In this document: piece by piece, positions 55,701-61,700 of the stretch | Position numbering within the stretch: the first letter of the stretch is position 1 | Layout: the number at the start of each line of letters is the position of its first letter | From: Ruditapes philippinarum | Lineage: Eukaryota | Length of the DNA stretch: 64,000 nt | Assembly (NCBI RefSeq): GCF_026571515.1 | Contig: NW_026863604.1 | Location: 62,001 to 126,000 of the forward strand | Direction of reading: 5' to 3' | Made by a program: the position numbers and the translations under genes | Notes under the pieces: model-generated | What the model saw: the letters and a program-made list of their open reading frames with translations, nothing else | The model's database searches: none | Told to the model about the DNA's origin: nothing

Positions 55701-58700
55701 GATAAAATGGTCAAAAGAATGTTTTCATAATTGCTTATGTGCATGAATTTCAGGGAATAGTTCCAGTTACAGCACAGAAACATCCCTATGGCTATCTTCT
55801 ATATTTAATTAAATATGAAAAAAATTTCTTACTGTTTTAACAGATTTTGTTAACTTGTGCAATTAGCAGTGTTCTACTGGTCTTGATAATGAAGTAACGG
55901 TACATTGTTTGATGTTTAAGGTTTTTGTTAAAAAAACTATGTTATATTTCGTTAAGTGATTTTGTTTTTTACAACAGCCAAGTATATGCAGAAACCCAGT
56001 ATGCAACAATAGGTCAAAGTTCATGCTAGATGTGAACAAGTCACGATTTGTAGACTTCCAGAAAGTTAGAATACAGGAAACCCAAGCCGAGTTACCTCGA
56101 GGAAGCATACCTAGGAGGTAAGTTGTTCCTCTATTTTCAGGTTAATTAGCCTTGGGGGTGGGGGAGCTCTGTGCTGATTGTGAACTTGCTAAATGTCTTT
56201 TCTGGATATTTTCCTGTCATCTTCCTAGTGGTAGTCATACCAGAAGTTTATTTGTTAAAACTGACTGTATATAATCCTAAAACAAAACTGACTGTACATA
56301 ATCCTAAAACACTGTGTAATTAATATTGATGTTTGTGTGTGGATTTAGTTTAATCTTTACATTTGCATAATAAGATACTTAAAATTTACAGGTTAAGTAG
56401 GAAGCTTAAACAGCTTTTTTGGAAACTCTCTTTCCATAAGTGTTAACTGTGTATGGATTTCATTGACATTGCAGTGTCAAGGTCTTGATTCTGTGTTGAT
56501 TGCCATTTACTATTGTCAGTGTAGAGGTATTAATTGTGTGTTGATTTACTATTGGCTGTGTAGAGGTATTAATTGTGTGTTGATTTATTATTGCAGTGTA
56601 GAGGTATTAATTGTGTGTTGATTTACTATTGCAGTGTAGAGGTATTAATTGTGTGTTGATTTACAATTGCAGTGTACAGGTATTAATTGTGTGTTGATTT
56701 ACTATTGCAGTGTAGAGGTATTAATTGTGTGTTGATTTACAATTGCAGTGTAAAGGTATTAATTGTGTGTTGATTTACTATTGCAGTGTAGAGGTATTAA
56801 TTGTGTGTTGATTTACAATTGCAGTGTAGAGGTATTAATTGTGTGTTGATTTACTATTGGCAGTGTAGAGGTATTAATTGTGTGTTGATTTACTATTGGC
56901 TGTGTAGAGGTATTAATTGTGTGTTGATTTACAATTGCAGTGTAGAGGTATTAATTGTGTGTTGATTTACAATTGCAGTGTAGAGGTATTAATTGTGTGT
57001 TGACTTACTATTGGCAGTGTAGAGGTATTAATTGTGTGTTGATTTACTATTGGCTGTGTAGAGGTATTAATTGTGTGTTGATTTACAATTGCAGTGTAGA
57101 GGTATTAATTTTGTGTTGATTTACTATTGGCTGTGTAGAGGTATTAATTGTGTGTTGATTTACAATTGCAGTGTACAGGTATTAATTGTGTGTTGATTTA
57201 CTATTGGCTGTGTAGAGGTATTAATTGTGTGTTGATTTACTATTGCAGTGTAGAGGTATTAATTGTGTGTTGATTTACTATTGCAGTGTAGAGGTATTAA
57301 TTGTGTGTTGATTTACAATTGCAGTGTAGAGGTATTAATTGTGTGTTGATTTACTATTGGCAGTGTAGAGGTATAAATTGTGTGTTGATTTACTATTGCA
57401 GTGTAGAGGCAGTCTGCACGAAAAACTTTTTATGGACAAAGACTTTCAGGCTTGGTCCATTAAAATATCACATAGCCCGAACAAATTTTAGGTAGCCCGA
57501 AAATTCATACAAAATTTTTCATAATTTGGCCAGGTTTTCAAATTTATATATATTGTGAAGAAATTGATAAAAAGCTTTGTCAGTTGAATAACATTTATTT
57601 CTGATATTCTACACTGAAAGATAATAGATTTCTTTCAACTTCTTGTTGACTCATTTCCATAGGCTCATCTTCATCTATACCAGAATCATAATCCGAGTCG
57701 CTGTCTCCGTCAGAACATTCCCCGTGGTTATGATGCTGAAAATATTACGGAAAATAAAGTGAAATTCATTGTTATTAAATAAGAATAAAATTTTTCAAAA
57801 CAACACAAATGTTTTACTTTTTAATATTATAAGTATATTAAAATTCAAACCTAAGCTAACATGGCAAACTTGTTAAATGGATAGCTTTTCTTTGAAATCG
57901 GAACAGTCAATTTATAATTATTATTTAAAGTTTTAAGTGATTTCAGTATCAAAATACAAAATATGGTTAGTCTAGACTGCAGTATAAAATTGAACATGGG
58001 TTGTAAAGGTAAAGAGCTGAATTCTGGTTGCTTGTTTTTTTTTTAATAGTAAACAATTAACAACTTCATGTAAAATGTTTCAAAAAGTAGCAATATACCT
58101 CTTCAGCATATACTTGTTCTGGAGGAGAACTTTCTAAAGGTTTGTCTGTGTTGATATCAGAATCTTGCTCTTGCTCTATAATACATGCATCTAGATCTGA
58201 CAAGGTGGGAGGAGTCCCCTCTGGAAGGTTTGGAGGCTCCTGCTCTACAAGAACAGACTCCTCTGTTGGATTATCAGAAAGTAATTCAGACTCTTGCTCC
58301 TTTGGGATGGCTGGCTGTTGCTTAAAAGAAATAACAGTTTTATTACTTTTTGTGCCCCCACGTTAGTGGCGGGCATTTAGATTTACCCTTGTCCGTCCGT
58401 CCTTCCGTCCGTCCGTCCGTTCACTTTTGTGTCGCACGTAACTCAAAAAGTATTTGACCTAGAGTCATGAAACTTTACAGGAATGTTGATCAGCATGTGT
58501 AGTTGTGCACCTGGGTATTTTCGTCTGGATATTTTTAGTATTTTCAGAGTTATTGCCCTTGACTTAGTAAAATTTTGCAATTTTCAACTTGTGTCGCATG
58601 TAACTCAATAAATATTTGACCTAGAGTCATGAAACTTTACAGGAATGTTGATCAGCATGTGTAGTTGTGCACCTGGGTATTTTCGTTCGGATATTTTAAG

Positions 58701-61700
58701 TATTTTCAGAGTTATTGCCCTTGACTTAGTTAAATTTTGCAATTTTCAACTTGTGTCGCATGTAACTCAAAAAGTATTTGACCTAGAGTCATGAAACTTT
58801 ACAGGAATGTTGATCAGCATGTGTAGTTGTGCACCTGGGTATTTTCGTCTGGATATTTTTAGTATTTTCAGAGTTATTGCCCTTGACTTAGTAAAATTTT
58901 GCAATTTTCAACTTGTGTCGCATGTAACTCAAAAAGTATTTGACCTAGAGTCATTAAACTTTACAGGAATGTTGATCAGCATGTGTAGTTGTGCACCTGG
59001 GTATTTTCGTTTGGAAATTTTCATTATTTTCAGAGTTATTGCCCTTGACTTAGTAAAATTTTGCAATTTTCAACATGTGTCGCAGGTAACTCAAAAAGTA
59101 TTTGACCTAGAGTTATGTTACTTTACAGGAATATTGATTAGCATGTGCAGTTGTGCACCAGGTATTTTCGTCTGGATTTATTTAGTATTTTTAGAGTTAT
59201 TGCCCTTCACTTAGAAAGTTTTTGCAATTTTCAACTTGTGTCGCAAGTTTCTCAAAAAGGATTTGACATAGTCATTTAACCTATAGGCAGGTTGCTCAGC
59301 ATATTTTAGATTTGCACCTGGGGTTTTGCTTGTGGATTTATCCAGTATTTGTAGAGTAATTTCCCTTGACTTAGTAAAAAGATTGACAGAACAGTGGCGC
59401 GGTGGGGGCACCCGTGTCCTATGGACACATTTTCTAGTTTATATGTAAATTTAGAATGTAAATCTAATCATGGATATACTTGTATGTAATTTTATATACT
59501 TAATTAAATTGTTCCTCTTATTATCGATACATTATCAAATTTAGCCCTGGCCCAATTGCCCATGGCCAGTGTAAATAAGTTCGGGCCAGTGTAAATTTTA
59601 CGAAAATTAAGTTAAATATATAGTAGAATTAAAACTGCAATTTGGCCAGTAAATTCAAAATCTTAAAATCATTGACAGTTATTATCAATCAATATTATTT
59701 TTTGAAAAAGGAGGTTACCATTTTGGTTGCAATCAAAAATTCCCCCTGTGTGCGCCATTTTGACATTTTAATAACGCGGTATTTGATTGGCTTAAAGTGT
59801 CTATGTATTATTTCAATAAGCTTACCCCTCTGGCATTGTGGAAATACCAGCGTCAATACCCCGAAAAAAATCAATATGCTATACCCCTCTCGGCGGTTAT
59901 AAATAGTATCAACGTATATTGGAAAATCCCGTGTCAATACCTCGAAGAAAATCAATATGTTATATCCCTCCCAGTCATTGTGTTTAAAATGCTATTTATA
60001 ATCATTTCGGTTTCCCAAACAATGCAAGACCGTCGGACTATGTGCCCTGCCTTTTTAGCTATCCCGAATGATTTTTTACTAGACTCGGGCTCGGGCTTTG
60101 CGTATTTTTCGCAGACTGTAGAGGTATTAATTGTGTGTTGATTTACTATTGCAGTGTAGAGGTATTAATTGTGTGTTGATTTACTATTGTCAGTGTAGAG
60201 GTATTAATTGTGTGTTGATTTACTATTGCAGTGTAGAGGTATTAATTGTGTGTTGATTTACTATTGTAGTGTTGAAGTGGTGTTGAGAGCCGAGGCTGTC
60301 GAGATGGCACAAGCAGGAGATAAATGTGACTTTACCGGAACTCTTATTGTTGTACCAGATGTGAGCACTTTATCTACCGCAGGTTGGTCATTAAATGACA
60401 TTTTAAATGGCTTTAAAAAATAAAAATTGATAAGTGTTGTGTAACATTTATAAGAAGAAACTTTATAAGTGTCCTGATATTAAGCACTAACTGTTGAAGA
60501 TTTATTTGGAATCACCATGACAGGTGACATCTTGATTTAAAATTGAAGAATTGAGATTCACTTGTGCTCAACATAATTTTTTATGCTCCCCGAAAAATTC
60601 GGGAGAGCATATAGACGTCAGGCTGTCCGTCCGTTAGTCCGTACGTATGGATTTTACTACTATGTCACAGAAATGATCACCATATTAAGACAACGTGTCG
60701 CCCGCAGCATTTGGGTTGCTACCTTGCAACAAAATCATGTCCGGCCTATAACTTCGTTATTTGAAGTCGGATTTTACCACGTTTCACAGAAATGATCACC
60801 ATATTGTGACGTGTCGCCAGCAGCATTTGGGTTGCTACCTTAAAGGTCAAGATCACAGCATGACCTTGCAGCAAAATCGTATCCGGCCCATAACTTCGTT
60901 ATTTGAGGTCGGATTTTACAACTATTTCACAGAAAAGATCACCAAATCGAGACGATGTGTCGCGGGCAAGTTGGTAGTTAGATCTCATTGAGTAGATGTG
61001 CAGTGCAAAGAACAGTAACTCTTCCTAGCCTAAGTTTGGAATTATCTCATTTTGAACTTTGTCTGGGACACAACTCTCAAAACTATAAAAGATATAGTTT
61101 TCTGTGTCCAAAACCTACCCGGTTCAACCGACTCTTGTTTGGAAAGTCTGACAAAAGGAAATAGCATCTGAATAAAATCAAAGCTGTTTACTTACATCAA
61201 ACATTTTGAATCGGTGTGGTGGTTAAGTTTTTAGTCCCCTACCGGTTTACCGGAGGGGACTTTAGGTTTACCCTCCGTCCGTCTGTCTGTCCGTCAGTCC
61301 GTCCGTCCACAAAACTTGATCCCGCGATAATGCAAAAAGTACTTTTTCTTTTCTTCCTATGTTGAAAATTCTGGTTGCTATGGCAACAAATAGAATGAAA
61401 ATATGGCAAATTTTACACATAACCTGGATCCCGAGATAACGCAAAAAGTACTGAAAATATTTTTATCAAACTTGATATATAGATAGATGGCAGTATGGAG
61501 ATTATGCACATCTTTTTCTTTTTTTCCTATGCTGAAAATTCTGGTTGCTATGGCAACAAATAGACTGAAAATATGGCAAATTTTACACATAACCTGGATC
61601 CAGTGATAACACAAAAAGTACTGAAAATATTTTTATGAAACTTGACATATTGGTAGACGGCAGTATGGAAATTATGCACATCCTTTCCTTATCTTCCTAT

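Follow-up and report, generated by a model that had tools for sequence, protein, structure and literature searches.

A minisatellite carrying copies of the MCM6 exon 6 acceptor at the end of intron 5 in Ruditapes philippinarum

How does an essential replication gene come to carry many near-identical splice acceptors in a row, and which of them does it use? The question is raised by MCM6 (identified via a downstream exon) of Ruditapes philippinarum, in a 64,000-nt window, i.e. the whole stretch of DNA analysed here (GCF_026571515.1, NW_026863604.1 positions 62,001–126,000; all coordinates are those of the window). A sequence-only reading of this DNA had described the end of intron 5 as more than two dozen amplified copies of the gene's own 3′ splice junction and had proposed a regulatory role for them. 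We consider it probable that the array is a length-variable 38-bp minisatellite copying the end of intron 5 together with its acceptor, that its likely origin is a single short duplication spanning the border between intron 5 and exon 6, and that it is likely neutral. The features of the locus are as follows.

55978..56117, + strand: MCM6 exon 5, 140 nt, donor AG/GTAAGT in phase 2 (gene model and RNA contig joints)
56118..60269, + strand: MCM6 intron 5, 4,152 bp in the window and 2,022 bp in contig C8380; its donor GT begins at 56118
56433..56519 (about), + strand: two degenerate edge units of 42 and 45 bp, by alignment to the main unit; the second is preceded by CAG
56520..57409, + strand: 5′ block of the minisatellite, 24 unit starts, 38–39 bp; AG before 19, GGCTG before 5
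57410..60118, no strand assigned: non-autonomous DNA transposon, 2,709 bp, with terminal inverted repeats CAGTCTGC...GCAGACTG
58349..59437, no strand assigned: nested element, (GTCC)n plus six 162-bp tandem units; boundaries approximate
60119..60269, + strand: 3′ block of the minisatellite, the remainder of a split unit plus 3 units, ending in the true acceptor TAG
60242..60246, + strand: candidate branch point TTAAT, predicted by motif scan, with its A at -25, inside a stretch of 29 nt that lacks AG
60270..60382, + strand: MCM6 exon 6, 113 nt, beginning S-V-E-V-V-L-R-A-E; RNA loose ends extend into it

The array consists of 38–39 bp units with 27 starts upstream of the true acceptor, 24 of them at 56520–57402 and three at 60155, 60194 and 60232, a count that depends on one assembly. 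Tandem Repeats Finder reports period 38 at 56505–57409 (23.6 copies, 94 % matches) and a second stretch at 60117–60272 (4.1 copies), with 94–97 % matches over both stretches. The last unit terminates in the true TAG, so the earlier description of more than two dozen units ending at the real junction holds. An AG in the same context precedes 22 of the 27 starts, while the other five follow GGCTG, the variant already noted as lacking the CAG. When exon 5 is joined in silico to each AG-bearing decoy, a premature stop results in 22/22 cases, again as anticipated; the predicted frame SVEVLIVC-stop is, however, exact in only 16, the remaining six comprising four with one substitution, one that stops after SVEV and one that reads on into the transposon before it stops. 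The AG|GTATT described 7 nt after the CAG is present as well (AG|GTATTA at unit position +7 in most units), and the predicted branch-point motif recurs within the units. At the 5′ edge, the two degenerate units are diverged and lie outside the homogenisation of the main array. A separate 40-bp repeat occurs at 42507–42727, for which no exon link was made.

An assembly artefact is ruled out by the presence of the array in a second contig, in reads of run X21 (three of which turn back inside it) and in a 68-base contig of run X4 that loops by 38. Likewise rejected were the arrival of a dispersed repeat family beside the exon, since all 13 matches to the unit block lie at the MCM6 locus or in C8380 (in a search that skips common words and thus does not prove absence), and a copy from an MCM6 paralogue, since exon 5 matches just these two places in the genome.

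What the sequence-only reading had missed, besides the second contig, is that the repeat is interrupted: the transposon sits inside a unit, flanked by a 6-bp target duplication (TAGAGG), and divides the array into 24 and 3 units, so that only the three decoy AGs of the 3′ block (before 60155, 60194 and 60232) adjoin exon 6. Its family is dispersed in the genome (40 matches to the right end), with 86–99 % identity and a longest open frame of 139 codons, and a 6-bp target duplication was found in six of the seven other copies having both ends (13 examined). A literature search on its superfamily yielded no fitting paper among the matches listed. Family copy L017 represents an empty site for the nested element, which may resemble the tandem-repeat-bearing HINE/MITE elements of bivalves. 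The earlier notion of intron growth by junction duplication thus applies to about 1,086 of the 4,152 intron bases; the transposon, with 2,709, contributed more.

The second contig, C8380, carries the same array with only eight units and without the transposon. Its collinearity with the window, together with an exon 6 that differs at three positions, all synonymous, suggests that it is likely the other allele, in which case copy number differs between the inferred haplotypes (27 vs 8). The AG-less GGCTG class makes up 5/27 units in the window and 2/8 in C8380, without enrichment near the exon, and the decoys closest to exon 6 retain their AG in both contigs. The unit variants of the two contigs therefore give no signal of selection against decoy AGs, and no purging is evident.

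Regarding the origin of the unit, a duplication spanning the 3′ splice junction appears likely because, aligned in the one register that the array dictates, the unit and the start of exon 6 agree at 7 of 9 bases (p about 0.003, for a short exon-like part and a window picked after the data were seen), whereas 0/135 other intronic AGs of MCM6 match the exon start as well. To this extent the description as an amplified junction stands; it is weakened by look-alikes (an AG with at least 7/9 exon match) within 150 bases in 2 of 25 repeat-free orthologous introns, all from distant species. Such look-alikes are compatible with an alternative that we hold to be unlikely, in which slippage between a chance look-alike and the real AG/TGT junction duplicated the last 38 intron bases and no exon bases were copied; the decoys would be equally silent. 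That only the first three exon bases match the unit without a break, and that the predicted branch point falls at unit bases 11–15, making most of the unit an ordinary intron end, speak for it, whereas the 0.003 chance of the fixed-register match and the 0/135 background speak against it, as does the leading and presumably older unit, which is no less exon-like (10/15 in C8380, p = 0.002, and 9/15 in the window). The three mismatches among the first ten bases all fall at third codon positions, and the exon's GTT (GTA in the repeat) is found in 26 of 31 distinct orthologues; mismatches confined to third positions would not be predicted by neutral decay of the repeat and count against the favored reading. 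No tandem periodicity was found at the end of intron 5 in the 24 testable orthologous introns, all from distant species. A test for relic duplications gave shuffle p < 0.05 in five of the 24 (L039, L043, L054, L066 and L067) and in 0/7 other MCM6 introns of the window, a lead only, given simple, uncorrected base shuffles in GT-rich introns.

As to which acceptor is used, the RNA contigs define the edge of exon 5 by GT..AG joints and a loose end at 56117, and all four contig sets, each belonging to a different study and with depths of 77, 16.7, 72.1 and 24, continue from 56117 into the true exon 6, with no joint of exon 5 to a unit start. The raw run X24 adds six reads, three of which span the junction of exon 5 with the true acceptor, and contains no decoy junction. 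X24 is the sole informative raw run of four: X23 gave no reads, and X21 and X22 resemble proximity-ligation DNA (GATC at loose ends, intron cover, no exon joints) and are uninformative on splicing. In runs X1 and X10 no contig reaches across the first unit, where absent cover proves nothing. These data support the use of the last acceptor by the main MCM6 isoform, in agreement with the earlier proposal that the most distal site is chosen; they have little power to reveal minor or NMD-degraded isoforms, with three raw junction reads, a three-read listing threshold, contigs from which rare variants are lost and RNA obtained without NMD inhibition. Since splicing to the last AG is all that the observed mRNA shows, the array is likely neutral.

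The regulatory proposals of the sequence-only reading (NMD-coupled control, recursive splicing and tuning by copy number) accordingly found no support in this low-power RNA, which holds no decoy junction. If decoys were leaky, some transcripts would use them and be degraded, and MCM6 output would fall with copy number or exon proximity. The stops behind all 22 AG-bearing decoys fit this scenario, as does their possession of the true site's tract and predicted branch point, with CAG instead of TAG; moreover, the two nearest pseudo-sites of the human 6-16 and CBS donor-side minisatellites are used (PMC1557585). We nevertheless find it quite improbable, as decoy joints are missing from the four contig sets and the one informative raw run and AG loss is not concentrated near the exon. 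Nor is the array a conserved device, because the repeat is absent from this intron end in 24/24 testable orthologues. A related and similarly doubtful idea sees in the locus a natural dosage experiment for the choice of a 3′ splice site, in which exon-adjacent decoys leak into NMD and are kept to few copies, until the transposon moved 24 units 2.7 kb away and freed them to expand. Hints in this direction are limited to two alleles, with 3 vs 8 exon-adjacent units and a commonest unit type (eight copies) confined to the region upstream of the transposon, and to the third-position pattern. If it were true, the alleles would differ in MCM6 output, and selection would prevent the start of the exon from becoming identical to the repeat at its three synonymous sites.

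Stepwise splicing through the AG|GTATTA of each unit is scarcely credible, despite the occurrence of an AG|GT motif in most units: the main decoy, CAG|TGT, regenerates no donor, the AG|GT site comes after two closer AGs, and GAG|GTATTA agrees with only 5 of 9 donor consensus positions, below all eight real donors scored (6–8 of 9). Recursive splicing is, furthermore, known mainly from long introns, and intron 5 measures just 2–4 kb.

We thus favor a neutral minisatellite in which about 28 intron bases and about 10 exon bases would have been duplicated, leaving the downstream copy intact, and in which unequal exchange or slippage may then have altered the copy number. Somatic length instability is reportedly seen in the array of amphioxus Adh3. 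The last AG is probably chosen through exon definition, since it alone is followed by the purine-rich exon and lies nearest to the exon 6 donor; the first 38 bases contain five GAR triplets after the true AG and one in a decoy. Against this step counts that decoy exons would measure 151–228 nt, an ordinary size. Rare decoy products would stop at or close to codon 225, and their presumed clearance by NMD would be quality control rather than regulation.

Among known systems, tandem duplication of an AGGT site has been modeled as a route to intron gain, with ATP2A1 as an example (Rogers model, PMC3265369), and the MCM6 duplication likewise contains AG/GT signals. This model is ruled out here: about 360 bases separate the donor from the repeat downstream of it, and 35 of the 44 other MCM6 loci have an intron at the same position, by which intron 5 is judged to be old and the array not a case of intron gain. 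In humans, polymorphic minisatellites at the donor side extend copies of a genuine splice site into the intron, namely in F7 intron 7 (37 bp), 6-16, CBS intron 13, lamin B2 and PDGF intron 4, and the exon-adjacent copy is normally used (PMC1557585). Like MCM6, these loci pose the question of choice among splice-site copies, studied at the donor side in F7; unlike it, they copy the 5′ donor, and 6-16 and CBS also use the pseudo-sites mentioned above. The CBS variant c.844_845ins68 (PMC7490669) holds one extra copy, compared with an amplified array in MCM6. Further acceptor-side cases were not found in the literature searched, including PMC10078293, and the matches listed contained no bivalve mirage, the cases listed being from lancelets.

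It is to these amphioxus 'mirage' minisatellites, a kind already described, that the MCM6 array belongs (PMC3087553). Known from the globin gene BflGb6, Adh3, troponin C and PGBD5 (PMC3087553 and PMC3902484), they are tandem copies of an intron's 3′ end and the next exon's start that keep the splice signal in many, not all, units, have edge units that escape homogenisation, differ in copy number between haplotypes (6 vs 3 in BflGb6) and reportedly leave splicing undisturbed (PMC3087553). BflGb6 in particular shows the same anatomy and splicing outcome as MCM6, where a head-to-tail minisatellite at an exon border contains the gene's own splice site, copy number differs between inferred haplotypes, edge units are unhomogenised and main-isoform splicing is undisturbed. 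No new mechanism is demonstrated by the MCM6 array. With it, the mirage repeats come to include a mollusc, and a gene essential for replication is seen to harbor 8 to 27 near-perfect decoy acceptors. It is also a warning to annotators, as such arrays invite false exon calls. In contrast to the amphioxus cases, it has more copies (27 vs 8), its putatively exon-derived part comprises at most about 10 bases and is diverged, and the array of one allele is split by a DNA transposon; alleles of such different length and structure make it a convenient locus for studying how splicing comes to select the last acceptor among many identical ones.

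The first nine MCM6 exons lie in the last 11 kb of the window in an exon model with GT..AG borders that reads open throughout, without a stop; RNA contigs bear out how exons 2-5 are joined, and the top PDB matches of exon 9 are MCM6 chains (E = 4e-33). Exon 5 has two genome matches only, on the window contig and on a second contig, C8380. The model places the intron of interest as follows:

56118-60269: intron 5 of MCM6 (exon model)

This intron carries a 38-bp unit in tandem at 56505-57409 and 60117-60272 (Tandem Repeats Finder). As the sequence-only reading had it, there are over two dozen units, most with a decoy acceptor: 27 unit starts, counted from the window assembly only, precede the true acceptor, 22 of them behind AG and five behind GGCTG, the CAG having been lost as described. 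Joining exon 5 to any AG-bearing decoy gives the predicted premature stop (22/22), in 16 cases at codon 225 after the reading SVEVLIVC. Judged by sequence, the decoys are complete acceptors, since they share with the true acceptor a candidate branch point at -25, a 29-nt AG-free zone and a similar pyrimidine fraction of the tract (0.53-0.59 for two unit types scored vs 0.59). Two degenerate units form the 5' edge; the leading one (56475-56519) departs from the main unit chiefly at sites that are third codon positions when read in frame with the exon, where three of four substitutions in its C8380 version fall, these being small numbers. Other short minisatellites lie at 42507-42727, 21115-21202 and 16520-16637 (40, 37 and 48 bp).

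The array is genuine: three turn-back reads inside it (run X21), a 68-base contig from run X4 that loops by 38, and the array on C8380 all speak against an assembly artefact. C8380 is collinear with the window across MCM6, differs in exon 6 at three sites, all synonymous, and carries eight units without interruption, six with AG, as well as a different insertion farther upstream. We take C8380 to be the other allele; the array would then be a VNTR.

In the window the array is interrupted by an element of 2,709 bp bounded by terminal inverted repeats (57410-60118; termini CAGTCTGC), which lies inside one unit, six bases of which are duplicated, so that just three decoys adjoin exon 6. Its right end has 40 genome matches; among 13 other copies examined, seven had both ends available, and a 6-bp target duplication flanks six of those seven. 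Copies 86-99% identical and a longest open frame of 139 codons mark it as a young non-autonomous DNA transposon. Family copies measure ~0.65-1.6 kb. The window copy carries a nested element of ~1.1 kb with 162-bp tandem units (58349-59437) that is missing from the family copy L017. Intron growth by junction duplication, as proposed, would account for the lesser part, the transposon having added more length than the array (~1,086 bp). Several elements (58349-59437, 61342-61739, 47594-47931 and L003:1870-3148, L003 being a further genomic stretch) combine microsatellites of (GTCC)n-like type with internal tandem units of 160-175 bp; they resemble bivalve HINE/MITE elements, and several occur in one of the two contigs and are missing from the other. 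Upstream of MCM6, 48800-52200 abounds in long homopolymer runs and degraded copies of a dispersed repeat, and may be poorly polished assembly.

The main transcript isoform uses the true acceptor. In contig sets from four studies (one is on record as RNA and three are presumed to be, and every set contains spliced joints; depths 77, 16.7, 72.1 and 24), 56117 leads directly to true exon 6 in 4/4, and no contig joins exon 5 to a unit start. Four raw runs were aligned to 54200-56560 (exons 2-5 plus one full unit), where decoy splicing is expected as a joint 56117 -> 56520 and joints are listed from three reads upwards. X24 gave six reads, three passing from exon 5 to true exon 6, with no decoy joint listed at that threshold; X23 gave zero reads. 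X21 and X22, recorded as RNA-seq, have reads that cover introns, break at GATC and contain no exon joints, as in proximity-ligation DNA (Hi-C) libraries, which these runs appear to be. This evidence speaks for the main isoform only, because contigs lose rare variants and nonsense-mediated decay (NMD), which is expected for rare splicing errors, would conceal decoy products. Within that scope, the decoy-based regulation suggested earlier has no support in the four contig sets or X24.

The last AG is probably picked via exon definition, because the true exon is richer in GAR triplets (five vs one for the decoy in the first 38 bases) and its donor nearer consensus: exon 6 matches at 7/9 positions, and the unit's AG|GTATTA, rightly called weak, at 5/9, below all eight real donors scored. 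Against this, decoy exons would span 151-228 nt, an ordinary size. Recursive splicing, by which the intron would be removed stepwise through the array, had also been put forward; it is unlikely, since the main decoy regenerates no donor.

As to origin, 35 of 44 MCM6 loci gathered from metagenome contigs by a pattern scan have an intron at the identical site and phase; the intron is therefore far older than the repeat, and this is no case of intron gain. The nine loci without it (L046, L049, L051, L035, L056, L064, L071, L072 and L075) may reflect intron loss, retrocopies or cDNA; in L051, exon 6 is nevertheless followed by a GT donor. Among 25 distinct intron ends, all from distant species, one was too short to test and the other 24 show no tandem periodicity. 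Over comparison lengths picked after seeing the data, the start of the unit agrees with the exon at 7/9 bases (p = 0.003, intron base composition) and at 9/15 (p = 0.011), the C8380 leading unit at 10/15 (p = 0.002); none of 135 MCM6 intronic AGs reaches 7/9. The repeat was thus likely born by junction duplication, as claimed. That claim is tempered by comparable exon look-alikes within 150 bases in 2/25 orthologous introns, which make slippage seeded by microhomology a possible origin. Over their first ten bases, unit and exon differ at three sites, each a third codon position, and 26/31 distinct orthologues have the exon's GTT, not the repeat's GTA; neutral decay alone does not readily account for this pattern. 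The MCM6 intron of an unrelated animal (L066) holds, 113 bases upstream of the exon 6 acceptor, an AG behind which the exon start recurs with 8/9 bases matching; this may be an old single junction duplication at the corresponding intron (uncorrected p = 0.013 by shuffling). Under junction duplication, one short duplication across the border, with the functional downstream copy kept, would most likely have come first; unequal exchange or slippage would then have altered copy number, leaving edge units behind.

The array probably belongs to an already known kind of repeat, the 'mirage'. No bivalve case appeared among the papers listed by a literature search of incomplete coverage; the two mirage papers found concern lancelets. 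Amphioxus mirages are described as tandem copies of intron end and exon start, with splice signals partly retained, edges unhomogenised and splicing normal (PMC3087553; PMC3902484), and BflGb6 haplotypes as having six vs three units (PMC3087553). The MCM6 array resembles them in its length difference between contigs, partial AG retention, degenerate edge and true-acceptor main isoform. Human parallels include the F7 intron 7 VNTR and further donor-side arrays (PMC1557585); whereas these lie at the donor, the MCM6 array lies on the acceptor side, as does its human parallel CBS 844ins68 (PMC7490669).
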